A DNA stretch of 64,000 nucleotides from positions 22,939 through 86,938 of the forward strand of contig JAISCX010000002.1 of assembly GCA_031265235.1 (NCBI GenBank), read 5' to 3'. Position 1 is the stretch's first letter, and every line of letters starts with the position of its first letter. The notes below the pieces were generated by a model, which was not told the DNA's origin, did no database searches, and saw only the letters and a program-made list of their open reading frames with translations. Shown here in pieces: positions 4,515-58,259 of the stretch. Both the position numbers and the translations under genes were made by a program. This DNA comes from Rickettsiales bacterium. GTDB lineage: Bacteria > Pseudomonadota > Alphaproteobacteria > Rs-D84.

Positions 4515-4609
4515 GTCGTGATTTGTAATCTGTGATTTGTGATTTGAAGTTGGATTTCAGATCACAAATCACAAGTCACAAATCACTTTTGCGACGAAGG
4601 AGCAAACAA

Positions 4610-7600
4610 ATGAATATGCTGCAGAAAATATTTGGACAAATAGAGACAAAAGAAAATTTTGACGCCTTGCAAATAAAAGTCGCGTCGCCGGAAGAAATTA
4701 TGTCCTGGTCTCATGGCGAGGTCAAAAAGCCAGAGACAATCAATTACCATTCTCTAAAGCCGGAATCCGACGGCCTGTTCTGCCAGCAGATATTCGGACC
4801 CGTAAAAGATTACGAATGCGCGTGCGGAAAATACAAGCGCATCAAGGTCCGCGGCGTGGTTTGCGACCGCTGCGGCGTGGAAGTAGGCAGCAGTTCCGTC
4901 CGACGCGAACGCATGGGCCATATCAAATTGGCGACGCCGGTGTCCCACACATGGTTCCTGCGCGAAGGCAAGATTGCCACGCTGTTGAACAACATGCCCC
5001 AGAAAAAGCTGGAACAGGTTATTTATTACGACGCGTATATCGTGACGGAACCGGGCTTGACCAATCTGAAGCTGTATGATGTAATTTCCGAAGACGAATT
5101 CCAAAACGCGCTGGAAGAATTCGGGGCGGATGCATTTCGCGTCGGTATCGGCGCCGAAGGCGTCCGCGATGTGATTTCCAACATGGACATGGGCGACGAA
5201 CGCACGCGTCTTCGTGTTGAATTATCCGAAACAAAATCCGAAACAAAGCGCAAGGGTATAATCAAACATTTGAAACTGGTGGAATCATTCATGGATTCGG
5301 GCACCGAACCCGCGTGGATGCTGCCGGATGTTCTGCCGGTCATTCCGCCGGATATGCGTCCGCTGGTAACACTGGACGCGGGTCACGTCGCTGCGTCGGA
5401 TCTGAACGATTTGTATCGCCGCGTGATTATCCGCAACAATCGCTTGAAGAAACTGGTTGACCTGCACGCGCCGGAAATCATCATCCGCAATGAAAAAAGA
5501 ATGTTGCAGGAAGCGGTGGATGCGTTGTTCGACAACGGGCACAAGGCCAGGCCGTTGGTCAGCCAGAACCGCCGTCCGCTGAAATCGCTGTCTGATTCTT
5601 TGATTGGAAAATCCGGACGTTTCCGTATGAACATGCTGGGCAAGCGCGTGGATTATTCCGGTCGTTCGGTTATCGTGTCCGGCCCCACGTTAAAGCTGCA
5701 CCAGGTCGGATTGCCGAAAACCATGGCGCTGGAATTGTTCAAGCCGTTCGTGTTCGCGCGACTGCTTGCCGGCGATTATGCGAATACTTTAAAGACTGCG
5801 CGCAAGATGGTTGAAAACGGCGAAGAAGTTGTTTGGGATATATTGGGCCGGGTCGTGCACCAGCATCCTGTTTTGCTTAACCGCGCGCCGACGCTGCACC
5901 GCTTGTCGGTCTTGGCGTTTGAACCGGTCCTGATCGAAGGAAAGGCGATCCGTCTGCATCCGTTGGTCTGCCAAGGCTTTAATGCGGACTTTGACGGCGA
6001 CCAGATGTCTGTTCATGTGCCGATCTCGCTGGAAGCGCAACTGGAAGCACGCACATTGATGCTGGCTACGAACAACGTGTTGTCGCCCGCAAGCGGCAAT
6101 CCTATGATCGTGCCGTCCCAAGACATGGTGCTGGGCGTTTATTACATGTCCCTGATTGACGGGGATCACACTGACAAGTCGCAGATATTTGCAAATATGG
6201 ATGAAATAAAACTGGCGCTGCATAATGGCGCGATTACATTGCACACGCCGATTATTGCAAAATACCATGCAGCCGAAGGGACGGAAAAAGTAAAGACAAC
6301 CGCTGGCCGCATGATTTTGGGCGAATTGTTGCCGAAAAAACCGAATATGCCGTTTTCCTTGGTAAATCAGCCGATGGGAAAAAAGCAGATCGAAGCTTTG
6401 TTGACCGTGACATATGAAAACTGCGGCGACAAGGATATGATTCTGCTTGCCGACAATCTGAAAAACACCGGGTTCGAACAGGCGGCAAAGTCCGGAATTT
6501 CCATCGGATTCGACGATATCGTGATTCCCGAAGAAAAAAAGCAAATGATCGAAAATGCCGAATCACAGGCCGAAGAAATTGAATCCCAATATCAGAACGG
6601 TCTGATTTCCCATGGAGAACGGTATAACAAGCTGATCGACATGTGGCAAAAAGTTACGAACAAGCTGGGTGATTTGGCTTTCTCTGGACTCCGCAAGACA
6701 TCGGGCGACAATTGGAATTCCATCATCATGATGGCGGATTCCGGCGCGCGCGGTTCAAAGTCGCAGATTCAACAGTTGGCCGGAATGCGCGGCGTTATGC
6801 AAAAGCCGTCGGGCGAATTGATCGAAGTTCCGATTATATCAAACTTTAAAGAAGGTTTGAGCATGGCGGAATACTTTACTTCCACCCACGGTGCGCGCAA
6901 AGGACTTTCCGACACCGCGTTGAAAACGGCAGAGGCCGGGTATCTTACCCGCCGCCTGGTGTCATTGGCGCATAATACTGTTATAACCGAACATGATTGC
7001 GGAACGCAAGAATACATCACGGCGGTGCCTGTTTACAACGGTTCCGTCCTGGCGGTATCGTTGGGCAATGTGGTCTTGGGCCGCACGGCCGCCAAGGATA
7101 TCGTCAATCCCACGACGGGCAAGGTTATTGTTCCTGTCGGAGAATTGGTTTCCAAGGCCGCCGCAAAGGAAATTGACGCGTCCGGCTTGTCCAGCGCGGA
7201 CATCCGCAGTGTTCTGACATGCCGGTCCGACGGGCTGTGTGCGAAATGCTATGGAATGGATTTGTCCAGATCCGCACTGGTCCATGTCGGCGAAGCGGTC
7301 GGCGTTATCGCGGGACAATCCATTGGGGAACCCGGGACCCAGCTGACGCTGCGTACATTCCACGTCGGCGGAATCGCCGAAGGCGGAACATCGTCGCACT
7401 TTATAGAAGCGCCGCTTGGCGGCACGATAAAGTTTGACGGCGTGTCTGTGATTACGAATTCCGCGGGCCGCCAGGTTGTCATTTCCCGTAATTCGAAAAT
7501 CATAATTACGAACAAGAAAGGCGGCGAATTGTTCAGCCAGAAACTGCCGTATGCGTCATTGCTGATCACCAAGGACGGCGCGTCGGTTGCGAAAGGCGAC

Positions 7601-10581: not shown

Positions 10582-11139
10582 ATGAAAAAAACAAAATCTT
10601 TGCTTTTTGCTATCTGCGCTCTGCTATTTGCGCCGCTTGCTGCGAATGCCGCGCCGGAATTGGTGTTGTATTATTCCCCGACGTGCCCGCACTGCCATAA
10701 TGCGCAAGAATTTATTATGCAGAATCTGGTAATCGAATACCGTTCGCTGGTTGTTGCCCAGGTTAATGTTTCTACACAATCCAATGCCAATGAGTTTCAA
10801 GAAGCTGTTAAAAAGTGCAAGCTGGATTCATTCGGCGTGCCGCTGGTTGTGATTGGTGAAAAATGTTTCCAGGGATACGGCCTGACAACCGGCCAGGAAT
10901 ATAGGGAAGCAATCAATGCAGAGCTATCTGCGGAAGAAGTTGCCGAAGCATCGGAAAGCCGCAAGGCGCTGGATGCCAATCCAGAAGAAGTGCGCAAAGC
11001 TTCTGCCGACAGAATCAACGCCGTCCAGAATTCCGAAAAAAAAAATGATGGCAAAAGCTATGTATTCCTATACGCTCTGTTCGGAATATTGCTGATTGCG
11101 TTCGGCTTTGTAGCATTGTCAAAAAAGAAAAAGAAATAA
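10582..11139 (+). CDS. periplasmic thioredoxin-fold protein (CPHC active site), C-terminally anchored
   Basis: Signal peptide, YYSPTCPHCH motif, C-terminal hydrophobic helix plus a KKKKK tail. Confidence 0.6.
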   Translation: MKKTKSLLFAICALLFAPLAANAAPELVLYYSPTCPHCHNAQEFIMQNLVIEYRSLVVAQVNVSTQSNANEFQEAVKKCKLDSFGVPLVVIGEKCFQGYGLTTGQEYREAINAELSAEEVAEASESRKALDANPEEVRKASADRINAVQNSEKKNDGKSYVFLYALFGILLIAFGFVALSKKKKK

Positions 11140-11215
11140 AAGTGTCAGTGCAAGTAGTTAGGATTGTTGAATGAATATGTTTACCATCCGAAGCACTTGC
11201 ACTTGCACTTGCACT
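11140..11215. repeat. palindromic heptamer-repeat element, family B (GTGCAAG/CTTGCAC arms), empty copy
   Basis: Left arm gtgtcagtgcaagtag and right arm cacttgcacttgcacttgcac around a ~40-nt spacer; the same arms occur at 27508/27899 and 50744-50848. Confidence 0.7.
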
Positions 11216-15717: not shown

Positions 15718-16095
15718 CCCACGCTCTCCTTTTTAGTAATCAGTAATCAGATCGGCAATCAGTAATTTTTGTTACGGATTTCGATTTCTAAAAACCGAAA
15801 GTTTGTTTATATCCAATTTTCTTGGTTTTCCGCCTATTTCAAGCGTAAATACCTTTGTCTACACACGAATCATAAAACAAAAGCGAATCGGCTGTCAACA
15901 TTATTTTTAAGAAAATTAATAATCGGCGGAAATCTGGGATATTTTTTATACAAAATCAACGTCATAGCCAAAGCACATCATTTTTGCAAACGTTTTTTAT
16001 CACATACACGCGTCAATACAAAATAGGGGATGGCGTGCCTCGCAAAATGATTTTATAACTTGCACCAAATCTTGCCGTAGCGTAAGCGAAGGCGG

Positions 16096-20733: not shown

Positions 20734-21609
20734 TTAGAATGCATACGGCTTTGCCCGGAAATTTTCCTGCGCGGCGGCGGCGTTTTCTGCGGCATCCATG
20801 GCGTTTCGTCCCAAATCGGTCAATTCCAGCTGGCCGTAAAACGCCGTCATCGTCGGGTCAAAGGAATTATCGGATGATATCCATTTGTCATTTCCGGAAT
20901 TCGGCGCGCCGTATTTGTCCAATACGCCCTGCCAAAAGCTGAGTATTTTTTTATCGCGCTGGTCTGCGAATTTTTCGGCGTCCCCTTCTATTTCGTTCGC
21001 GTCATTTTTATAAACTATCTTCCAGACGCGGTTTCCGGTTGCGTTGGATGTAAAAAAGACGTCAATTGTCTCGCCGGTTGACATCCGCACCAGATGCAGT
21101 TCGGACGCGTAAAGCAGTCCGCGTTTTTTCGCCAGGGTGTTTATGCATTTTTCAAGTTCGCCGGGGATTATTACTTTCTGCTGTCTGCATTCATAGTCGA
21201 GATTGTTTTTCCAAACGCCCGGCACCGAATATATCACCGAATTTTTTGCGCGCGGCGCATAAAGCGAACGCGATTTGAAAAACAGTGATTGTATGTCCGA
21301 AAAGGCCATGCCCAGCATTGATCCAGCGATATCCATGTCTTCCACTGCGGCAAAGCTGGTGTTTTCATTTAAGTATACGGGCGTGTCTATTGTCATATTC
21401 AATGGCGCGGCATCGGATATTCTGGCGTCCGTCGCGCTTTGGAAATCATAATCGGCTGTCTGAAAGTCATCGAATGCAAAAGGGTCTTCGTCCGCCGCTT
21501 GCGCATGCGGCAAATAGCAAATAGCAGACAGCAGACAGCAAATACGACAGATGCGCGTTAAGCGGCGCGTTTTTTGCTGTCTGCTATTTGCTATTTGCTC
21601 TTTATTCAT
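20734..21609 (-). CDS. secreted hypothetical protein (C-terminal ...KPYAF)
   Basis: 291 aa; the signal peptide is encoded by a palindromic heptamer repeat (family E); acidic N-terminal region; ends in aromatic F. Confidence 0.5.
   Translation of the reverse strand: MNKEQIANSRQQKTRRLTRICRICCLLSAICYLPHAQAADEDPFAFDDFQTADYDFQSATDARISDAAPLNMTIDTPVYLNENTSFAAVEDMDIAGSMLGMAFSDIQSLFFKSRSLYAPRAKNSVIYSVPGVWKNNLDYECRQQKVIIPGELEKCINTLAKKRGLLYASELHLVRMSTGETIDVFFTSNATGNRVWKIVYKNDANEIEGDAEKFADQRDKKILSFWQGVLDKYGAPNSGNDKWISSDNSFDPTMTAFYGQLELTDLGRNAMDAAENAAAAQENFRAKPYAF
21509..21598. repeat. palindromic heptamer-repeat element, family E (GCAAATA/GCAGACA)
   Basis: gcaaatagcaaatagcagacagcagacagcaaata ... tttgctgtctgctatttgctatttgc; lies inside the 5' end of the 20734-21609 CDS. 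Confidence 0.7.
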
Positions 21610-22248: not shown

Positions 22249-22923
22249 TTATTCTGTTACATACGCGTTAAAGTCCGCGATGTAATAACCAAGCGTCAGC
22301 GGCCCGCCCGGGGGTCCTTTTGCAACGCGCGCGAATGCCGTGACGCTTATGATTTCATGCGCGTTGGATTCTACCTTAAAGCTGATCCGCCATACGCCGC
22401 CTGTTTCAGAAATGCCCGACACCGGAAAAATTTGAACAGAATTTTCCAGAACGTGCCTTGTTTCCCCGGCATTCGCGCGCACGGTCAGCTGCGGCAGCAC
22501 GCCGAATTTGAATTTTTGATAAAGGCCGTCCGCAGCCTTGCAGCAAATATCGCATCTTCCGGCGTCATTTGTTTCGCAAGCGGCGCGGTCGCATGCGCAC
22601 CAGTTTGCCTCGTTCTCGTTTGGATCGGGTGACACGGAAAGCCATTTTTTTGCGAATGCCGCGACCAGCGATTCCTGTCCAGCGCTGTCCGGTGTTTTGG
22701 GCGCGGTTGTCTTTTCGCCGATGACGTTCCATTCGCCGGTTTCCGAATCAATGGAAATCAGAAAAGGATTGATTCTGGCGGAATGAACCGTCCAAAGCAA
22801 CAATCCGGCGAGAGCCGCCATAACAAAAAATGCGACAAGCGACCAAATGGCCAAAGCCCGCGAGAATGCAATTTTTCCGGCCGTTGGGAAAACAGGCAAG
22901 TCATAATTGTTCGGATAGTCCAT
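22249..22923 (-). CDS. bitopic membrane protein, paralogous architecture, with a Cys cluster
   Basis: N-terminal TM, then soluble domain containing CACDRAACETNDAGRCDICC. Confidence 0.45.
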   Translation of the reverse strand: MDYPNNYDLPVFPTAGKIAFSRALAIWSLVAFFVMAALAGLLLWTVHSARINPFLISIDSETGEWNVIGEKTTAPKTPDSAGQESLVAAFAKKWLSVSPDPNENEANWCACDRAACETNDAGRCDICCKAADGLYQKFKFGVLPQLTVRANAGETRHVLENSVQIFPVSGISETGGVWRISFKVESNAHEIISVTAFARVAKGPPGGPLTLGYYIADFNAYVTE

Positions 22924-27507: not shown

Positions 27508-27924
27508 AGTGCAAGTGTCAGTGCAAGTGCAAGTTGGTGGCAAATATGAAATCAGTAGAAGATTTAAATGTTTATAAACTTGGATTCAAAGTAGCATTAG
27601 ATGTTTATAAAATTACAGAAAAGTTTCCAAAGGCAGAAGTATTTGGATTAGTCTCGCAGATGAGACGTGCGGCAATCTCGATAAACTCCAATTTATCCGA
27701 AGGGTGTGCAAGGAATTCTTCGGGAGAATACAAGCATTTTGCAGGAATATCAAAAGGATCGGCGGAAGAATTGAAATTTCAGGTAAAAATATCGCAAGCT
27801 CTAAACTATATTAACTATGAAGAGGCCGCAAAGTTAATAGAAGATATTAACGAAATATGTAAGATGCTAACAGGCCTAATAAAAACTCTAAATTAATACT
27901 TGCACTTGCACTGACACTTGCACT
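27508..27924. mobile_element. MITE-like cassette: perfect 26-bp inverted repeats (family B) enclosing a four-helix-bundle gene
   Basis: agtgcaagtgtcagtgcaagtgcaag at 27508-27533; its exact reverse complement at 27899-27924; inserted between cdsA and rseP. Confidence 0.75.
27534..27896 (+). CDS. four-helix-bundle protein (23S rRNA intervening-sequence protein family)
   Basis: ~120 aa; LNVYKLGFKVALDVYKIT...LVSQMRRAAISINSNLSEG...ELKFQVKIS pattern typical of TIGR02436-like proteins. Confidence 0.7.
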   Translation: MVANMKSVEDLNVYKLGFKVALDVYKITEKFPKAEVFGLVSQMRRAAISINSNLSEGCARNSSGEYKHFAGISKGSAEELKFQVKISQALNYINYEEAAKLIEDINEICKMLTGLIKTLN

Positions 27925-27941
27925 TATGAAAAGGAAATATT

Positions 27942-32601: not shown

Positions 32602-32879
32602 TTTTTGCGAAATTAAGTATAGTTAATCCGAATCCAAATGAATTTGGGTTCGGGACCTTTAGAAAGTCCTATATAGTGGCGGCGCGAAAGTGCCGGTATC
32701 CGTACATGGTGCTTTTGCGCCGGATCTGTGTCCCGACATCGGTCGGGAAGCTGTTGGCTATAAAACAGGTATTGCCAAAAGCCACAGGGTCATTCCACTA
32801 TATGATTTTCTAAACTTCCCGACCGCCAATTCATTGGCGGTTTTTGCGCATCAGAGAGAGAAAGCCGAAGGGCAGTCAG

Positions 32880-34465: not shown

Positions 34466-35839
34466 TTAAGCGTTCAGCAATTGTTCCGGTATGTGCATCG
34501 CGTTCGCCAGATATTCTATCGTTGCAGGTTTGTTGATAGAGTCCGCGAATCCCGCGGTGTCCGCCGCCGACAGCCATGATAGAATTTGCGCCGCGCGTTC
34601 GTCCGCGGCCAGCTGGGCGATCGGCGCTATATAGCACAGCCGCGCGTCAGAGTTCAGCGATATGGGATCAATGATTCCGCGGCGCGCCAATATCGCAAGT
34701 CCGCGTTCGCAAAGCGGCCGGATCAGTTCATGCAAAATTCGTCCATATGTCGCGCCCAGCACCCGCATCATGTCCGTATTTCGCGCGATGATTTCCGTTG
34801 CGGTCATCTCCTTGTCGGACAAAGCGCCAAGTCGGTCGGCAAGCAGCGCGTGGCGAATCCGCGCGCGCAGATCGGACAGCACCAGCTGCGATACATCAAA
34901 ATCCGCGCCGGAACGCAGCGGGGTCAGACCGCTGGAACCGACGGCTTTCGGAATAATGGCGCCGGGCGTCAGGTTGATGTTGGAAAGGTTTATTACGCCG
35001 TCGTCGTCCGCCTGCCAGATTCCGCTGACCGCTATGGTTGCGTTTTTCAGGACTAATTCGACCACCTTGTTCGCAGTCTTGATATCGGGCAGCGCGCGCA
35101 TGACCGGGCTGCGGCCGTATGCTTCGCCGGCCGCCGCCGACCAGCGGAAAATCAGATACGGGCACTGTTCGAACCGGCCGTTCGCGACAATATTGTTTTC
35201 CATTTCGCCATCGGTATCTATCCATGCGGAAAAATTAAATCCATTCGCGGCCGACTGAACGCATTGCACCAGTCGAAGCTGCGTTTCCGGATTTTGCTTA
35301 ATGCCGTCGGCCAGATTTTTTGGCGGGGTCCATGACGGATATTTTTCCAAAACGTCCGCCGCGGACATCGACGTGGTGTGAAATATTGCCGTCAAATCGC
35401 CCGGCCCGTTGCGCAGGACGGAAATATCCGTCATGGGTATCGCGGTAAAGTTAAACGCGCTTGTGGCAGCAATGGGGTTTTCCGAAAAGAACAGGCATGC
35501 GGTCCCAAGAATCGCCATATCCAGATAGCATTGATGAATCGTGGTGTAAAAATTAGAATCGTTCAAATGACGGCGCAGCGCTGTTGTCGCCGCATCCGGG
35601 TCTGGCGATAATTCGGAAGCGCGCGCCAGCGATACCCAACAGGATTCCGGCGGGGTAAGCAGGCTGAACATATTCGCGGCCAGCATATCCACGGCGTCGG
35701 CGGCCGTTGCGTCAAACAGCCGCGCGTTGTCATCATCGGTCGCAGGCATGGTATATCGCGCGCATTCGGCCCATCGGCGCATGACTGCATCCCGTCCGGC
35801 AAGCGATTGTTTGTAAAGGTTTTGTAAATTTTTGTTCAT
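34466..35839 (-). CDS. T7-like head-to-tail connector (portal) protein
   Basis: N-terminal pattern R..W..CARYTMP...LFD..AADAVDMLAANMFSLLTPPESCWVSL parallels T7 gp8 ERLKNDRAPYETRAQNCAQYTIP...LFP..W. Confidence 0.65.
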   Translation of the reverse strand: MNKNLQNLYKQSLAGRDAVMRRWAECARYTMPATDDDNARLFDATAADAVDMLAANMFSLLTPPESCWVSLARASELSPDPDAATTALRRHLNDSNFYTTIHQCYLDMAILGTACLFFSENPIAATSAFNFTAIPMTDISVLRNGPGDLTAIFHTTSMSAADVLEKYPSWTPPKNLADGIKQNPETQLRLVQCVQSAANGFNFSAWIDTDGEMENNIVANGRFEQCPYLIFRWSAAAGEAYGRSPVMRALPDIKTANKVVELVLKNATIAVSGIWQADDDGVINLSNINLTPGAIIPKAVGSSGLTPLRSGADFDVSQLVLSDLRARIRHALLADRLGALSDKEMTATEIIARNTDMMRVLGATYGRILHELIRPLCERGLAILARRGIIDPISLNSDARLCYIAPIAQLAADERAAQILSWLSAADTAGFADSINKPATIEYLANAMHIPEQLLNA

Positions 35840-36288: not shown

Positions 36289-36358
36289 TCAAAGTTGAAA
36301 GCAAAAGATAAAAGCTGAAATATTTCAACTTTCAACTCTCTGCTTTCAATTTTCTTTT
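36289..36358. repeat. palindromic heptamer-repeat element, family D (GTTGAAAG/CTTTCAAC)
   Basis: agttgaaagcaaaagataaaagctgaaat ... tttcaactttcaactctctgctttcaa between two tRNAs. Confidence 0.6.
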
Positions 36359-36536: not shown

Positions 36537-37382
36537 TCACACTTTAAAATCCGTGGCGGCGCGCAGCGGCAGAAACATCTGTCCGCGGGGGCGTATGGCG
36601 ATCGGCGTCATGCGGAGCGCGCCTGCGACCGCATCCAGACCATCATCGTGGTTCGCCCCGGCAACAGGCAGCCATTCTTCCATTTCCGCAATCAGCCTTG
36701 TCCGCCGCACGCGTTCGTGCGCGTAAAGGCGTCCCGTGGCCAGCAATGGTTCTATGGCGTCCAGGATGCGCTTTTCCTTGTTTTCGCGGTTTATTATTTT
36801 CTGAATTGCAATCGGCCGGCCTTTTGCGATCGCTGCGCCGCGCAAAATTTCAGGCAGCGCGTTTCCAATGCCGTTGACTTCTATGGCAATATTTCGTTGC
36901 CCATATTGTCCGAGAAAATCTAAAACCCGTCCGCATTGCGTCGCGAAAGGATGCAGATCGTCGGCGCCGGTCGCCAGATATTTTATGTCGTGAATAAAAG
37001 CGCGTCGGTTTTTATCGTCGCGGAATATTATGGCGCAAACGCTGCTGTCTGCGCCATCTTTTGCGCTTGACGGGTCCCAATATGCCGCGATACCGGTTAT
37101 TTGCAGGGGCGCATTTCCATGCATACTTGCGTCTATATGCGCCATTTGCGGATTGAATTCGCCATCATAGAACCGCAATGCGCCCGGATCCAAACGCGCG
37201 CGGTCTTCGGATATGAATTCCAGCATCATTTGCGATGAAAAATACCGCGGCCCCGCGGTTTCGCGCAAACGATCGATCTTTTCAATCGGAAAGACTTCGG
37301 GCCACGCGGACGCGCCTTTGTCATTCACGATCGGAATGCGCATCATGCGAAAGCCTTTCAGGAATGGTTGTTCGTTTGGCAT
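36537..37382 (-). pseudogene. T7-like terminase large subunit, C-terminal nuclease fragment
   Basis: RNaseH-like nuclease motifs (IDASMHG..., SVCAIIF, NHDDGLDAVAG); aligns with T7 gp19 from about residue 215; in-frame stop 5 codons upstream of the ATG. Confidence 0.8.
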
Positions 37383-41565: not shown

Positions 41566-41724
41566 TTGATTTTCCAAGGTTTACGCCAATTTTATAAACC
41601 TTGTTATAGATTTCCAAGATTCTCACCCATTTGGGTTAACTGCCATATTTTTATAAGTATGTTTTGACTTTGTCAAAATTTAATATAGTATTACATATTA
41701 CAATATTAGCTAAAAGAGGCTTTA

Positions 41725-44580: not shown

Positions 44581-44702
44581 CATGATAAACATTATAACAG
44601 AAACCTTGCGATTCCAGAACCTTGAATTTTTTTGTTGCCTTTTTCGCAAATGTTGACTAAGATTCTGTCAAGAATTGACAACAATTGACAAGGGAGCACA
44701 CA

Positions 44703-45722
44703 ATGGCATGGGAAGAAATCATTTTTCCAAACAATATCCGCAACATTCGCCTTTCAAGGGGAATGAAGATGACCGCTGTCGCAAAAAAGGCCGGTCTTTC
44801 GCTTTCCGCGATGTCCAAAGTTGAAAAGGGTGTCCGCCGCTTGAACCAAAAACAGCTGTTGACGCTGTGCGGCATATTGAATTGCAAACTTTCCGATATA
44901 TTTATCAAGGAATCCGACGAAGTTGCCGGCGCATGGCAAAGCGAAATGCAGCGGAGATTATCCGACAATGAAATGTCCGGCCTTAAAATATTCGGCTCTG
45001 GCGTGCGGTTTCTTCGCAAGAAAAAGGGGCTGACCATCGCCCAGGCTGCGAAAGATTCCAAAATGACCCTGTCTGTTTATCATAAAATAGAAGTGGGCCA
45101 GCGCGAAGTTTACGAAGATGAAATCGGGAACCTGGCAAAAGCGCTTGGCAAGACTACGGACGGAATGTTCAAAACAATTGCAGAACTTTATGAATCCGGA
45201 GAGTTGTCAAAACAAATCAGCAAGGTTGAAGAGAAAGTTCGCAGCGTTCTGGTGCCCAATAGTCCGAATGCCGGGCATGGCATCCAAGGCGCTTTGTATG
45301 GGGCAAAGATTTACGAATCCGCGCGCAAGAAACTGGTGCCTGTTTTCGGCACGCCTTCTGAAAAGAACATCATTTTCAAAAAAACCGATGAAAAAATGAT
45401 TGTCGCGCCGCTCAGTCTAGAAGGCAATCCTGGAATTTACGCCATAATTCCGAATGTTCGCAGACTTGGCAATATGTTTCCCGCGCGTTCGTATCTGTTT
45501 GTTAATCCCGACGCGGTTGCGCAACCTGGCGATTTGGCGGTTGCATTTGCAGAAGACTTTGAAAGAATAGAACCTGATGCGAAAACGCATGCGTCGGTCG
45601 TAATGGTCCGCGAAGACGCCAAGGGAAAGCTCTATGGCCAGATGGCGGGACCCGATGAAAAAATTCCGGTTTCCAATAATGGCGGCAGACTGCATAAAGT
45701 CGTGCAGGTGGTGATAGAGTGA
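44703..45722 (+). CDS. CI/LexA-like repressor with tandem XRE HTH domains and a C-terminal S24-like domain
   Basis: Two HTH_XRE segments (IRNIRLSRGMKMTAVAKKAGLSLSAMSKVEKG; VRFLRKKKGLTIAQAAKDSKMTLSVYHKIEVG) plus a ~150-aa C-terminal domain. Confidence 0.5.
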   Translation: MAWEEIIFPNNIRNIRLSRGMKMTAVAKKAGLSLSAMSKVEKGVRRLNQKQLLTLCGILNCKLSDIFIKESDEVAGAWQSEMQRRLSDNEMSGLKIFGSGVRFLRKKKGLTIAQAAKDSKMTLSVYHKIEVGQREVYEDEIGNLAKALGKTTDGMFKTIAELYESGELSKQISKVEEKVRSVLVPNSPNAGHGIQGALYGAKIYESARKKLVPVFGTPSEKNIIFKKTDEKMIVAPLSLEGNPGIYAIIPNVRRLGNMFPARSYLFVNPDAVAQPGDLAVAFAEDFERIEPDAKTHASVVMVREDAKGKLYGQMAGPDEKIPVSNNGGRLHKVVQVVIE

Positions 45723-45813
45723 TTTGTAATTTGTGACCTGTGATTTGTATGAAATTTACCTATCAAGGATTATACTGAATATCAAATCACAAATCACAGA
45801 TTACAAGTCACGA
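45719..45813. repeat. palindromic heptamer-repeat element, family A (GTGATTTGT/ACAAATCAC)
   Basis: gtgatttgtaatttgtgacctgtgatttgta ... atcaaatcacaaatcacagattacaagtcac; second copy at 4518-4586 between rpoB and rpoC. Confidence 0.7.
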
Positions 45814-46562: not shown

Positions 46563-47162
46563 TCACGCGGTTTTATAAATCGTATCTTTCGTATGCGGCG
46601 TACCGATATAAATCATTGTGCCCAAAGGCGACAGGATGAAATCCAGTTCGCGCAGACGCTCTCTCAGCTTTTCACGTTTTTGCGCGGTGTTGCAGGTATT
46701 CGGAACTTCTACGTCGTCGCAGATAATCAGGTCCGAACGCATGCCTGTGATGTTACCGTTGATACCTTGGCAAATTATGGAAGGTTCGCGAATGCCGGGC
46801 GGACGATTTATGGTCAGCCTGTGCCTCCCCCATTCTTTTTTGACGGCGGGCAACATGTCGCGGCAAAACTCGTGATTTTCCAAGATGTGCTTTATATGAG
46901 ACACCATGCGCGATGCCAGATTTGTTTCTGCGGATAAAATCATGATCCGCGCGTGCGGCCGCATGCACAGAATCCATGCGGCAAAAATGCCGACAACGGT
47001 TGATTTTCCAGAATGCCGGAATGCCGCCAAAAGGGCTCGGCGTGGCTCGGCGTCCGAAGATTCCACCAAAAATCGCAGAATATCCTTATGATGCGCGGGC
47101 GTTGCGAACCCGATCAGCTCGTTCCATGAATTTAAAAAATTTAAAGCGGAAGAATAATGCAT
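46563..47162 (-). pseudogene. T7-like terminase large subunit, N-terminal ATPase fragment
   Basis: Walker A AFRHSGKST, Walker B LIICDDVE, coupling motif IYIGTP; co-linear with T7 gp19 residues ~45-210; stops 2 codons after TIYK. Confidence 0.8.
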
Positions 47163-50743: not shown

Positions 50744-50848
50744 AGTGATTAGTGCAAGTGTTAGTGCAAGTGCAAGCAGTGAATATGAAGATACATGTTT
50801 TTATCATGCATCCTTGATCCACTTACACTTGCACTTGCATTTACACTA
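50744..50848. repeat. palindromic heptamer-repeat element, family B (third copy)
   Basis: ttagtgcaagtgttagtgcaagtgcaagcagtg ... ccacttacacttgcacttgcatttacac. Confidence 0.65.
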
Positions 50849-51658
50849 TTCAGCGCAGCTGATTTTCACAATCCCGGCATTGTCGATCAGGCATGCGCCT
50901 TGGGACATGCTGTTGCATACGAAATGCGCGGCGCGCTCGCCATTCCAAGAAATGTCGGTTTTGACATCCTGGCCGGATGCGTGCCCAACGGCGGACGCGT
51001 GATACATAAAACAGTCGCGCACGCCGTCGTCTTCCGGCAGGCCGTTGTGCAAAAGCCAATTGACCCCAAGCCATTTCTTGGTTTCAAATCCGCCGACCAG
51101 CGCGCCGGTTCCGACATAGTCCGCATTGGTGAATTCTTCCAATGACAGCAGTTCGTTCCACTGGTGCACTCCGACGACGCAGAATCTGCGGCCGTCGTCA
51201 GGAATATCTTTTTCGTTCAGATATTCGACGGCGGAAAGAATCAGATCTTTGGAAAGACCCGTAGCTCCGGTGCCGGCAACTGTCAAAGCGCCCGACATCG
51301 CATTGATGATCAGTTCATCCGTTTTGCGACCAAGCGCGTACGCGCCGGCGGATGCGACGACGCGGCGTTCATCGATGTTGGTTTTTAATTCATCCAGGGC
51401 ATCGACCCAATCGCCGGCGTAATAGTCGGCCAGCTGGCATTCGACCGGCGTGTGCTGCAGGTTCATGACAGGAACCAGTTCATGGCGTTCTTTGGTTGCG
51501 GCGGTGCCTTTGCCGACTTTTTGAAATACGGTGCTGGCGCCCGTGACACCGTTCTTGGAACGCACGGTAGAGCGTAATTTTGTTCCGGTCTGCTGGTATG
51601 CCAAATGCACGTCAGCTTCGAACTGTTTTACAAATGCATGATCTATGGTTAAAGACAT
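50846..51658 (-). CDS. T7-like major capsid protein (gp10 family)
   Basis: HAFVKQFEADVHLAY...RSTVRSKNGVTGASTVFQKVG parallels T7 gp10 ALFLKVFGGEVLTAFA...RHMVRSISSGKSAQFPVLG. Confidence 0.7.
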   Translation of the reverse strand: MSLTIDHAFVKQFEADVHLAYQQTGTKLRSTVRSKNGVTGASTVFQKVGKGTAATKERHELVPVMNLQHTPVECQLADYYAGDWVDALDELKTNIDERRVVASAGAYALGRKTDELIINAMSGALTVAGTGATGLSKDLILSAVEYLNEKDIPDDGRRFCVVGVHQWNELLSLEEFTNADYVGTGALVGGFETKKWLGVNWLLHNGLPEDDGVRDCFMYHASAVGHASGQDVKTDISWNGERAAHFVCNSMSQGACLIDNAGIVKISCAE

Positions 51659-51739: not shown

Positions 51740-51821
51740 AAAGTTTAGCATTGCGGTTATGCGACATTCCGTCGCGCCGCTTTGCAAAACACGCGGGTCC
51801 AAAGGATTATCCGCGAATGAG

Positions 51822-51958
51822 AAAGTGAAAGAATGAAACAGTGAAAAGATAAAAAATTGCGGATGCTGCTGATTTGCGGCGACATGCTAACTATTTTACT
51901 GGGAAAAATTGCTTTGCAATTTTGCGAATTCACTCTTTTACTTTTTCACTCTAAAATA
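51822..51958. repeat. palindromic heptamer-repeat element, family C (AGTGAAA/TTTCACT)
   Basis: gagaaagtgaaagaatgaaacagtgaaaag ... attcactcttttactttttcactc with ~90-nt spacer; related copy at 56985-57098. Confidence 0.65.
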
Positions 51959-51960
51959 AA

Positions 51961-51983
51961 AAACCCGCGAACGCGGGTTTTTT
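51961..51983. terminator. bidirectional intrinsic terminator (aacccgcg-aa-cgcgggtt) flanked by A/T runs
   Basis: Lies just downstream of the K/A-rich gene on the minus strand. Confidence 0.55.
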
Positions 51984-52001
51984 ATTAGCATTGCAAAGAA
52001 A

Positions 52002-52451
52002 TTACCAAGCTTTTCTTGCGGCCGGCTTTTTCTTCGCCGGGGCTTTTTTTGCAACCGGTTTCTTTGCCGCAGGTTTTTTCACCGCAACTTTCTTAACGGC
52101 CGGTTTTTTTGCAACCGGCTTTTTCGCTGGGGCTTTTTTCGCAACCGGTTTCTTCGCCGCAGGTTTTTTTGCGACCGGCTTTTTCTTCGCCGGGGCTTTC
52201 TTCGCGATCAGCTTTTTTGCGACCGGGGCCTTTACGGCCAGCTTTGCGACTTTCTTCGCGGCGGGTTTTTTCGCCGGGGCTTTTTTCGCGACCGGATTTT
52301 TGACGGCCACTTTCTTCGCAACGGCTTTTTTCACCGCCGGCTTTTTAGCGGCCGGTTTTTTCACCGCTGGCTTTTTCGCCGCAGGCTTTTTAGCGACCGG
52401 TTTCTTTGCCGCAGGTTTCTTCGCAGTGGGTTTCAAGAATGAAAATGCCAT
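52002..52451 (-). CDS. histone H1-like Lys/Ala/Pro-rich protein (AKKPAAKKPVAKK repeats)
   Basis: AGGAG RBS before MAFSFLKPT; about 25 pentapeptide repeats encoded by 15-nt tandem DNA repeats; the plus-strand F/A/G-rich track ORF is its antisense. Confidence 0.55.
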   Translation of the reverse strand: MAFSFLKPTAKKPAAKKPVAKKPAAKKPAVKKPAAKKPAVKKAVAKKVAVKNPVAKKAPAKKPAAKKVAKLAVKAPVAKKLIAKKAPAKKKPVAKKPAAKKPVAKKAPAKKPVAKKPAVKKVAVKKPAAKKPVAKKAPAKKKPAARKAW

Positions 52452-52552
52452 TCTTCCTCTCCTTCTCTTTTGTTTTGATAGAACAAAATTTTTTTGTTCT
52501 TGGTACAATTGTATCTGAAACGAAAAAAATAGTCCAGAACATTTTGTAAAAA

Positions 52553-53206
52553 TCACGAATAAAGTTTTTTAAATCCGCTTTCGATCTTTCGTATGTATTC
52601 AGGATTGCGATCGCGCCAATATTTTGGATCGCGCATCATATCGCGGAGGTCATTGTCAGACAAATTCCCGCATTCGTTTTTTGACGTTGAAACGGATGGC
52701 TCTATATTTTGCATCATGGCAAAGATGCTGCGGATTCCCGCGGATGACGCGCATAACGATTCGTAAGTGTCTTTGGGCAAAAATTTTTCCGCAAAAGCGT
52801 CTATCGCCGTTAACGATTCCCGCATTTTTTCTTCGCTGCCGAAAAAGCTTTTTAATTCGAACATCGCGTCTGCAACATATCCCGATTGAAATATTTCCGA
52901 CAAGGCGGGTTCGAAAAATTCATTCGCGATTTCGTAAATTTTTTCAACCTGCCGCGCATTAAGTCCCGCTTCTTGAAATTTTTTCCGAATCATATCGTCA
53001 TCATACAAAGGATGCATAGGATATCCCGATATATCTTCCGGCACCCCGATTGCGCGGTTGAACCTGGCTTTGGAATCATCGTCCGCGTCATCGTTTGGCA
53101 ATGACACCATTGTTCCGATTTTCTTTTCAAGTTCGGAATATGATTTGATCAACGCCTCTGGGTTAAGCGTTCCGTCCTGGTTTTGGAATTTTTCTGGGAT
53201 TTGCAT
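52553..53206 (-). CDS. acidic protein, candidate scaffolding protein
   Basis: 217 aa, D/E-rich, positioned upstream of the capsid gene as gp9 is in T7. Confidence 0.35.
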   Translation of the reverse strand: MQIPEKFQNQDGTLNPEALIKSYSELEKKIGTMVSLPNDDADDDSKARFNRAIGVPEDISGYPMHPLYDDDMIRKKFQEAGLNARQVEKIYEIANEFFEPALSEIFQSGYVADAMFELKSFFGSEEKMRESLTAIDAFAEKFLPKDTYESLCASSAGIRSIFAMMQNIEPSVSTSKNECGNLSDNDLRDMMRDPKYWRDRNPEYIRKIESGFKKLYS

Positions 53207-56815: not shown

Positions 56816-56989
56816 ATGGCAGTTCCAAAGAAAAAGACCAGCAAAGCCCGCAGCAAGCAGCGCCGCGCGCATGATGCGTTGCCCGTAATGGCGTCCGGCA
56901 CATGCAAGAAATGCGGCGAAAAAAAGCGTCCGCACCATATCTGTCCGGCATGCGGAAACTATGACGGCAAGGCGATAGTAGTTAAATAG
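56816..56989 (+). CDS. rpmF: 50S ribosomal protein L32
   Basis: MAVPKKKTSKARSKQRRAHDAL..., 57 aa, not in the ORF track (below 60 aa); AAGGAT RBS. Confidence 0.85.
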   Translation: MAVPKKKTSKARSKQRRAHDALPVMASGTCKKCGEKKRPHHICPACGNYDGKAIVVK

Positions 56990-57098
56990 TGAAAGAAGTG
57001 AAATAGTTAAAATATGCTTTGTATATTTTAACAGTGAAAAAAGTGAATTTGTTCACTCTTTTCACTTTTTTCACTCTTTTCACTCTTTTCACTTACAA
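56985..57098. repeat. palindromic heptamer-repeat element, family C (second copy)
   Basis: agtgaaagaagtgaaatag...cagtgaaaaaagtgaa | ttcactcttttcacttttttcactcttttcactcttttcac, between rpmF and plsX. Confidence 0.65.
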
Positions 57099-58160
57099 AT
57101 GTCAAATTCCAAAAAAATCATTGCTATTGATGCTATGGGCGGCGATCGGGCGCCAAAGGCCGTTTTTGGCGGTCTGAACCAGTTTTTGTTTCAAAATGGC
57201 GAAGATAATATATTTTTCCGCATTTTCGGGGATGAATACCGCATATCTCAAATGCTGAAAAAATATCCGCGTGTCGCCAGAAACTCTGAAATAATTCATG
57301 CCCCGGATAAAATAAAATCCACGGACAAGGTGCGTGATGTTATACGTTCCGCGCAGAATACATCCATGTACATGGCGATAAAAGACGTCCGCGAAGGGAA
57401 TGCCTGTGCCGTTGTATCTGCTGGAAATACGGGTGTTCTTATGGCGCTGTCAAAATTGGCGTTAAAGACTGTGGACGGCATTTCAAGACCCGCGATTACG
57501 ACGATGCTGCCCAGCGGCGGCGGCGACAGCCGGGTCGTTTTGCTGGACCTGGGTGCGAATGTTATGTGCGATGAAGAAAACCTGTTTGATTTCGCGCTAA
57601 TGGGGGCTGTTTATGCGGATAATATCGGAAAAATGCCGCGCCCGAAACTTGGCATATTGAATATCGGCGAAGAAGAGCAAAAGGGCCAGGAATACCTGCA
57701 AAAGTTGAATAAATTGCTAACCGCGCATAAAGATGAACTGCCTTTCGAATATGTCGGATTTGTAGAAGGCACGGATATCGGCGGGGGCGAGGTTCAGGTT
57801 GTGGTAACGGACGGTTTTACCGGGAATATAGTGTTAAAAACAGTGGAAGGCACGGCGAAATTGGTAAAACGGGTGTTGGTTGACACTTTCAAGAAATCGG
57901 TTTTGGCGATTGCTTTGGCGTTTCTCTTGACCCATGTTTTCAAACGTCTCAAGGCAAAGATCGACCCGCGTTCATATGCGGGGGCTGTTTTTATCGGATT
58001 AAACGGATTTGTTGTGAAAACGCACGGTTCCAGCGATGCGCTGGCATTTTCCAATTCTATAAAATATGCGGCGGATCTGGCGGTTGCGGACTTTAATCAA
58101 AAAATCAAAACAGGTATCAAAGCTCTTGCGGCTGTCAAAGGAAAATTAAAGGAAGAGTGA
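57099..58160 (+). CDS. plsX: phosphate acyltransferase PlsX
   Basis: IAIDAMGGD N-terminus and full-length PlsX core. Confidence 0.9.
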   Translation: MSNSKKIIAIDAMGGDRAPKAVFGGLNQFLFQNGEDNIFFRIFGDEYRISQMLKKYPRVARNSEIIHAPDKIKSTDKVRDVIRSAQNTSMYMAIKDVREGNACAVVSAGNTGVLMALSKLALKTVDGISRPAITTMLPSGGGDSRVVLLDLGANVMCDEENLFDFALMGAVYADNIGKMPRPKLGILNIGEEEQKGQEYLQKLNKLLTAHKDELPFEYVGFVEGTDIGGGEVQVVVTDGFTGNIVLKTVEGTAKLVKRVLVDTFKKSVLAIALAFLLTHVFKRLKAKIDPRSYAGAVFIGLNGFVVKTHGSSDALAFSNSIKYAADLAVADFNQKIKTGIKALAAVKGKLKEE

Positions 58161-58259
58161 TATTTCCGATTATATTTTCTATTTTACATTTGCCGTATTC
58201 CCTGCTATCATTTTCCATTATTAATAAATGTAATAACATCTAAAATCCAGGAGATTAAA

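Follow-up and report, generated by a model that had tools for sequence, protein, structure and literature searches.

The stretch of DNA analysed here (the window, 64 kb long) comes from a metagenome-assembled alphaproteobacterium whose nearest named relative is Candidatus Enterousia, and carries nine hairpins distributed among its genes (Table 1). Inspection of all of the cited coordinates showed that in each of them one arm is composed of 2-5 tandem units and the other arm of their complement; the units are 6-9 nt long, most often 7 nt, the arms measure 20-31 nt with a complementarity of 77-100%, and the predicted folds are hairpins. Five unit families are represented by 1-3 copies each, all with internally tandem arms: GTGATTT (4518-4586 and 45719-45811), GTGCAA(G) (11140-11215, 27508-27925 and the hairpin at 50746-50852), an AGTGAAA type with a period of 8-9 nt (51818-51948 and 56988-57093), GTTGAAA (36291-36354) and GCAAATA/GCAGACA (21510-21603). 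An earlier inspection of the letters alone (the sequence-only reading) had described palindromes built from tandem units of 6-7 nt at these sites; all of them are present as described and in excess over shuffled sequence, the tandem units being real but their period being 6-9 nt. The intergenic contexts that it gave (rpoB|rpoC, rpmF|plsX, tRNA-Ala|tRNA-Leu and beside a phage-type capsid gene) were also confirmed, and the copy at 21510-21603 proved to fall within an annotated ORF. Its pair of arms at 27508/27899 is likewise real, but what it took for a spacer, of 363 nt, is a complete gene that had been overlooked.

Table 1. Hairpins of the window and the gene enclosed by one of them, with their surroundings, arms and predicted folds.
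Feature	Position	Strand	Context	Arms and fold
ORF-less GTGATTT hairpin	4518-4586		3 nt past rpoB stop; rpoC ATG at 4610	31-nt arms, 87% complementary; -37.9 kcal/mol, z -7.9
ORF-less GTGCAAG hairpin	11140-11215		76 nt, filling the gap from the TAA of a glutaredoxin-like gene (stop at 11139) to AATC-ATG of cvpA (11220)	z -5.1
GCAAATA/GCAGACA hairpin	21510-21603		overlaps first ~35 codons of ORF 20734-21609(-)	24-nt arms, 100% complementary
Full-length element	27508-27925	+	cdsA stop (27506) on one side, rseP ribosome-binding site and ATG (27942) on the other; four-helix-bundle gene enclosed	arms 27508-27534 and 27898-27924, 27 nt, 100% complementary, 363 nt apart; GTGCAAG/GTGTCA units
PF05635/TIGR02436 gene, 116 aa	27546-27896	+	in loop of 27508-27925	
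ORF-less GTTGAAA-type hairpin	36291-36354		fills spacer from tRNA-Ala (end 36285) to tRNA-Leu (start 36361)	weakest member: -17.9 kcal/mol, z -3.0
ORF-less GTGATTT hairpin	45719-45811		TGA of ORF 44685-45722 in first unit; next ORF from 45827	z -7.3
ORF-less GTGCAAG hairpin	50746-50852		stop of capsid gene (50846-51658, minus) within one arm	z -4.1
ORF-less AGTGAAA-type hairpin	51818-51948		between capsid gene start and a separate, conventional terminator (51955-51986)	73-nt loop; -40.3 kcal/mol, z -5.9
Composite ORF-less AGTGAAA / TTCACTCTT hairpin	56988-57093		rpmF TAG (56987-56989) overlaps first unit; plsX ATG at 57099	right arm period 9; -42.2 kcal/mol, z -7.4

An ungapped scan for inverted repeats with a score of at least 14 within 500 nt returned 10 non-overlapping pairs, whereas 100 dinucleotide-preserving shuffles of the window gave 0.42 on average and never more than 2, and the arms were periodic in five of these 10 (shuffle mean 0.01). 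Seven of the ten longest inverted-repeat pairs of the window are these hairpins, Tandem Repeats Finder (TRF) calls their arms as arrays of period 6, 7 or 9, and RNA folding of eight elements gave z-scores from -4 to -7.9, equalled by no shuffle, in seven. The detectors used (ungapped and TRF-based) each overlook several true elements, the TRF pairs finding five of the nine in the window, and an automated classifier under-calls periodic hairpins at rpoB|rpoC, so that all element counts are lower bounds. Three TRF arrays (15735-15766, 41689-41708 and 58170-58191) were left uncounted for want of a complementary partner; the first is a lone direct array of AGTAATC heptamers with no such partner nearby, which may be half of a decayed element. 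A 37-nt inverted repeat just upstream of thyA (32637-32673 and 32799-32835, 81% complementary, 125 nt apart) has non-periodic arms and is of a different kind. In the window, Rfam at gathering thresholds found tRNAs and no other known RNA family, and PADLOC found no defence-system match.

The elements are placed from the stop codon of one gene to the ribosome-binding site of the next. In three of the window the upstream stop lies inside the first unit (the elements at 45719, with its TGA at 45720, at 56988, with the rpmF TAG at 56987, and at 50746, where the capsid gene stops on the minus strand), and three more begin 0-3 nt from a stop.

The protein encoded in the loop of 27508-27925 matches PF05635 (23S_rRNA_IVP) from end to end (E 1e-35) and NCBIfam TIGR02436 (four helix bundle protein, E 8e-35). 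The nearest solved structure is that of the pentameric XCC0516 (PDB 2gsc, E 5e-19), and 126 homologues of the 116-aa protein were collected and their invariant residues identified. Judged by these matches, the loop gene is of the 'S23p' type found in 23S rRNA intervening sequences (IVSs), and the presence of a PF05635 gene within the 27508/27898 pair of arms ties the window hairpins to those sequences. The protein also has in common a homologous four-helix-bundle fold with Avd, the accessory protein of diversity-generating retroelements (PF22296, E 1e-6; PHROG Avd, E 5.5e-9), with a score against the Avd family NF033474 of 33 bits, below the cut-off of 80; no reverse transcriptase was found in the window ORFs or among the called genes around four homologues. 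Derivation of the ORF-less copies from the full-length one by internal deletion was considered and rejected, as local alignments between their loops and the interior of the full element were not significant (at best 20 of 300 shuffles). A six-frame profile search found nothing of the gene in the ORF-less loops (all E > 0.3), which leaves descent by internal deletion unsupported and arm identity as the only tie to the full-length copy.

This identity extends to the order of the units. The left arms at 4518 and 45719 match at 27 of 31 positions and share the order GTGATTT-GTAATYT-GTGAYYT-GTGATTT, and those at 27508 and 50751 match at 25 of 27, with AGTGCAAGTGTYAGTGCAAGTGCAAG common to both; an order of variant units that is common to the copies of a family indicates that they are related by descent and not by convergence. 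Between the window element at cdsA|rseP and one at gyrB|x in another genome (L002), the arms agree at 26/27 and 27/27 positions while the interiors are 73% identical. AGCAATT units are found around a gene in one relative (L206) and in an ORF-less hairpin in another (L096). When 72 elements were compared, pairs sharing at least 30% of their arm 6-mers had a protein identity of 57%, against 45% for the others, a difference reached in 0 of 2,000 permutations (p < 0.0005). By these sequence comparisons arms and gene are inherited jointly, and their co-variation could come from common descent.

The same arms surround PF05635 genes far beyond this lineage. A scan with the family profile over one genome per species gave at least 588 matches to the window protein, the best 80 of which, from about 20 phyla, yielded 78 usable loci; being the top matches to the window protein, they are a biased sample of the PF05635 family. 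In this set (best 80 of at least 588 matches), an inverted repeat with a score of at least 12 flanks the gene at 66 of the 78 loci, compared with 2 of 386 controls taken at shifted positions inside the same loci; at a score of at least 14 the figures are 53/78 and 0/386, and periodic arms, overwhelmingly of period 7, were found at 48/78 loci and 0/386 controls. On viral contigs of IMG/VR the PF05635-type gene is flanked in 25 of 31 cases, 18 of them with periodic arms. The idea of a lineage-specific proliferating element, put forward in the sequence-only reading, was thus not upheld. The four closest homologues examined (at gyrB|x, at mraY|ftsW and at two dxs|rnhA loci) all have inverted tandem-unit arms, each with different units (GTGCAAG, GTGATTC/GTGCTC, GTGCTAG/GTGTTA and GTGTAAG/GTGTAGG), and in general the repeat unit changes from locus to locus, nearly every one having its own. 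A search of 5 kb around each of the 80 loci of the cross-phylum set found no conserved 23S motifs. The loops between complementary pairs of tandem arrays are bimodal in length (2-150 nt and about 350-650 nt), which fits the co-occurrence of ORF-less and gene-bearing forms in the same genomes.

Several further loci deserve a separate mention. A few units are shared by phyla that are far apart, in some cases where the proteins between the arms have an identity of no more than 34-50%. Thus AGTGGTTAG is present in Planctomycetota, Fibrobacter, Bacteroidota, Chloroflexota and Proteobacteria, AGGCTGAAG occurs in Desulfobacterota as well as in numerous viral contigs, and CGTGAAG and CGTATCT also recur in distant phyla. 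Long-loop pairs detected in two relatives (L155 and L095) were discarded, each being two adjacent short hairpins. In L136 (13861-14274), the loop between AGTGATAG/TATCACTT arms is 362 nt long and lacks any recognisable gene for a four-helix-bundle protein; several GC-rich palindromes are nested within it and may represent the insertion of a second small element. In L094, a relative from a termite gut, complementary arms AATCATAATCAG… and …CTGATTATGATT (935-1476) flank the whole of rplJ at a distance of 496 nt, and could be either halves of two elements or the arms of one hairpin around a housekeeping gene.

Orientation and composition of the elements are both biased. The PF05635 gene lies on the same strand as its upstream neighbour at 59 of 64 loci, compared with 72% of control gene pairs (p = 5e-5), and the orientation of the downstream neighbour showed no bias in the same set of loci; with its strand shared by the upstream neighbour, the gene is probably expressed by transcription that reads through from host operons. 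Of 73 gene-bearing elements, 67 have a G-rich (C-poor) first arm and a C-rich second one (p = 6e-15), as do eight of the nine window elements, a bias that is independent of orientation, as a palindrome is identical on both strands. One idea is that a G-rich first arm avoids Rho, which might otherwise load on a C-rich, G-poor arm left exposed before its partner has been transcribed. Two further explanations were tried and set aside. The left arm has stops in all three frames in 30% of elements (8% of shuffles) and no stop at all in 22%, which is modest support for a role of the heptamer period in placing stops in three frames. Selection at the RNA level through an excess of G.U wobbles on the sense strand gave no signal either (69 G.U-type and 69 A.C-type arm mismatches), and these equal counts do not point to RNA over DNA as the folded molecule under selection.

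The hairpin at 21510-21603 overlaps the start of a conserved secreted protein; the charged arm and the loop of the hairpin encode MNKEQIANSRQQKTRRLTR and its T/C-rich arm encodes the hydrophobic core ICRICCLLSAICYL, directly before the cleavage-like site AQA|ADEDP. In two relatives (L205 483-640 and L206 1471-1600) arms likewise lie in the signal peptide, with different units (IYSLFFILYSLFF and YALCFMLFALCF), and distant homologues of this protein have ordinary short signal peptides. Upstream of this gene, a VirB8-like gene (22249-22923, minus strand) adjoins small membrane or secreted proteins, and the neighbourhood could belong to a cluster resembling type IV secretion systems. Four of the hairpins lie between 34466 and 53206, where T7-like phage genes are dispersed among cellular genes, a tRNA cluster among them; these include a head-tail connector (34466-35839), a terminase large subunit that seems to be split (36537-37382 and 46563-47162), an AEP primase-helicase, DnaB, and tail tube, capsid and T7-type capsid assembly proteins. 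Between the phage-type capsid and scaffold genes there is also a histone H1-like gene, rich in lysine and alanine (52002-52556, minus strand), with tandem repeats of 15, 30 and 45 nt.

The explanation that we favour, with moderate confidence, is that the nine palindromes are IVS-type foldback insertion elements located outside rRNA, one of them full-length and eight ORF-less. As part of this reading, the arrangement of genes and hairpins suggests that the elements are co-transcribed with host genes. By analogy with the IVSs of rRNA, the arms of the transcript would pair into a perfect duplex of 20-30 bp, a substrate of RNase III, which probably cleaves these stems, and such a cut would remove or isolate the insert, so that operons, tRNA clusters and rRNA could tolerate it. 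Copies that lack the ORF may be non-autonomous relatives of the gene-bearing ones, and the turnover of units may combine slippage within arms with conversion between arms. With regard to an enzyme for mobility, a Pfam or NCBIfam screen of the ~57 ORFs of the window found no transposase, integrase or reverse transcriptase. A wider proposal, offered tentatively and rather unlikely in this full form, is that PF05635 proteins are the dedicated factor of a hitherto unrecognised, pan-bacterial class of mobile elements without transposase, each protein recognising its own tandem-heptamer arms and promoting the copying or insertion of hairpins at stop-codon/ribosome-binding-site junctions via a hairpin DNA or RNA intermediate; the 23S rRNA IVSs would then be the subset that landed in rRNA, and Avd a domesticated relative.

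The comparison of orthologous junctions bears on whether such hairpins are insertions or have evolved in place. At rpoB|rpoC, 32 distinct spacers of relatives were compared, and a stem of at least 12 bp was found in 27 of them and one of 11 bp in three more. About a dozen of these are heptamer hairpins with lineage-specific units (GTGGTTA/GTGTAAG, GTTGTTA, GTGACGG/GTGTCGG and GTGGTTG/GTGCCGG, GTGATTT being that of the window) and the remainder plain GC hairpins, and the junction is empty in L092 (14-nt spacer) and L098 (50 nt, no hairpin). The glutaredoxin-like|cvpA junction is empty in five relatives (L098, L102, L116/L123 and L158), with spacers of about 8-15 nt of the form …AAAAAATAA-…-ATGTTTGA, and is occupied in L096 by an independent hairpin with AATTAGC units. 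At cdsA|rseP, which holds the gene-bearing element in the window, the closest relative (L208) has an ORF-less hairpin with GGAACAA units, the genes are directly adjacent in L211 (12 nt) and L209 (22 nt), and L210 carries a four-helix-bundle element after rseP and not at this junction. No target-site duplication was found at filled compared with empty sites at the junctions examined in relatives. Elements are therefore gained and lost at orthologous junctions, and this presence and absence at three of them, together with near-identical arms at unrelated loci, bears out the suggestion of the sequence-only reading that these are palindromes of the insertion type.

It could nevertheless be argued that the hairpins are RNA structures selected by the host between cistrons (processing sites, mRNA stabilisers or translational insulators), which evolved in place by slippage and took up the gene as an occasional passenger. 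A stem of 12 bp or more in so many of the rpoB|rpoC spacers (27/32), with units that differ by lineage, would be expected in that case, and the exact fit from stop codon to ribosome-binding site and the hairpin that was absorbed into a signal peptide and kept across lineages with different units also agree with it. Selection in place is nonetheless unlikely: each of the three sites tested is empty in some close relatives (8-22 nt), arms with one order of variant units reappear at unrelated loci and in different genomes, and the location of PF05635 inside arms at 66 of 78 loci, taken from the best 80 of at least 588 matches, when only 2 of 386 control positions were so flanked, would be unexpected for a passenger.

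Less probable still is a reading in which a sequence-specific protein, perhaps the pentamer of the cognate four-helix-bundle protein, binds the tandem units as it would iterons, the palindrome being secondary. The Avd protein, to which the window protein is related by its PHROG match, binds nucleic acid, and the arms (26-27 of 27 positions) are better conserved than the enclosed gene (73%) and their units co-vary with protein similarity; this co-variation is, however, equally explained by common descent, the complementarity of the arms is kept through variant units, which binding sites do not require, and the window has five unit families and a single gene of this type. The suggestion that the shared GTG-rich cores are binding sites of one protein was not supported either, with five units in the window and nearly each other locus having its own.

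The sequence-only reading had likened the hairpins to REP, Correia and RPE palindromes, and miniatures of these types (REP/REPIN included) that a RAYT or an IS transposase would mobilise from another place in the genome are indeed small, multi-copy, dispersed, hairpin-forming, intergenic and polymorphic in presence and absence. This origin appears very improbable for the elements described here, whose arms are tandem repeats of many different units and not copies of one conserved imperfect palindrome of 20-40 nt (there are five unit families in 64 kb). The screen of the ~57 ORFs of the window found neither a Y1/RAYT or DDE transposase nor an integrase or a reverse transcriptase, and the kinship with REP/RAYT systems was accordingly abandoned; nor was there an IS in the window or a duplicated flank, as in IS-derived MITEs, and PF05635, alone among genes in its consistent link with the arms, encodes a four-helix-bundle protein and not a transposase. 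Ordinary rho-independent terminators are hardly credible, for although the hairpins are stable and T-rich runs follow 4518-4586 and 36291-36354, the other seven of the nine have no T-run after the stem, the stems are AT-rich and of 20-30 bp where intrinsic terminators have a GC-rich stem and a U-tract, the elements lie inside operons (rpoBC, rpmF-plsX and cdsA-rseP) and between tRNAs, and a conventional terminator stands apart at 51955-51986, beside one of them.

IVS-type foldback elements have their closest known counterpart in the 23S rRNA IVS of Coxiella burnetii, a selfish element of 428 nt in which a 28-bp stem closes a loop with an S23p ORF, with three tandem GACAGAT heptamers, variable in number among strains, in the 5' arm upstream of the ORF, and that is cut by RNase III within the stem (PMC4990558). 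The PF05635 gene in the loop is common to the S23p IVSs of C. burnetii and Leptospira and to the full-length element of the window, which is of similar size (418 nt) and also has tandem heptamers next to the ORF and terminal inverted repeats of about 20-30 bp, as do the other window elements (PMC4990558). They differ in location, as the S23p IVS sits in a helix of 23S rRNA whereas all nine window elements are situated within or between genes for proteins and tRNAs, one of them in a region coding for a signal peptide, and in content, most of the window copies (eight of nine) having no ORF. RNase III cleavage was demonstrated experimentally for the rRNA IVSs of Coxiella and Leptospira (PMC4990558), and for the window elements it would follow by analogy.

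Tandem heptanucleotides are also known as cyanobacterial STRR and Beggiatoaceae TAACTGA repeats, which, like the window units, abound in intergenic DNA near start codons; according to the part of the Beggiatoaceae paper available, these arrays are mainly direct, with a single inverted set beside 169 direct ones in the Beggiatoa genome, unlike the inverted arms of the window, and that part reports no link with PF05635 (PMC4679880). The foldback (FB) transposons of Drosophila have inverted arms composed of tandem repeats in variable number, most copies being gene-less and a minority carrying a coding loop. They are eukaryotic, with much longer arms and another coding capacity, and their likeness to the window elements is architectural only. 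Heptamer hairpin contexts in Nostoc may have been described earlier by Elhai et al. in 2008 (PMC2527708).

Where rRNA intervening sequences come from, and what S23p does in them, has been under discussion since the early 1990s (PMC4990558). The IVS design was already known in rRNA, and what is added here is the pan-bacterial rule that associates PF05635 genes with heptamer arms, for which a limited search of the open-access literature found no general description. The elements have a simple signature (arms of tandem heptamers, the first of them G-rich), with ORF-less derivatives and clear gain and loss; gene callers extend ORFs into the arms, and one arm in the window is now part of a signal peptide. 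These findings suggest that the copies found in rRNA represent one particular case within a far larger set of hairpin elements residing in ordinary intergenic spacers.
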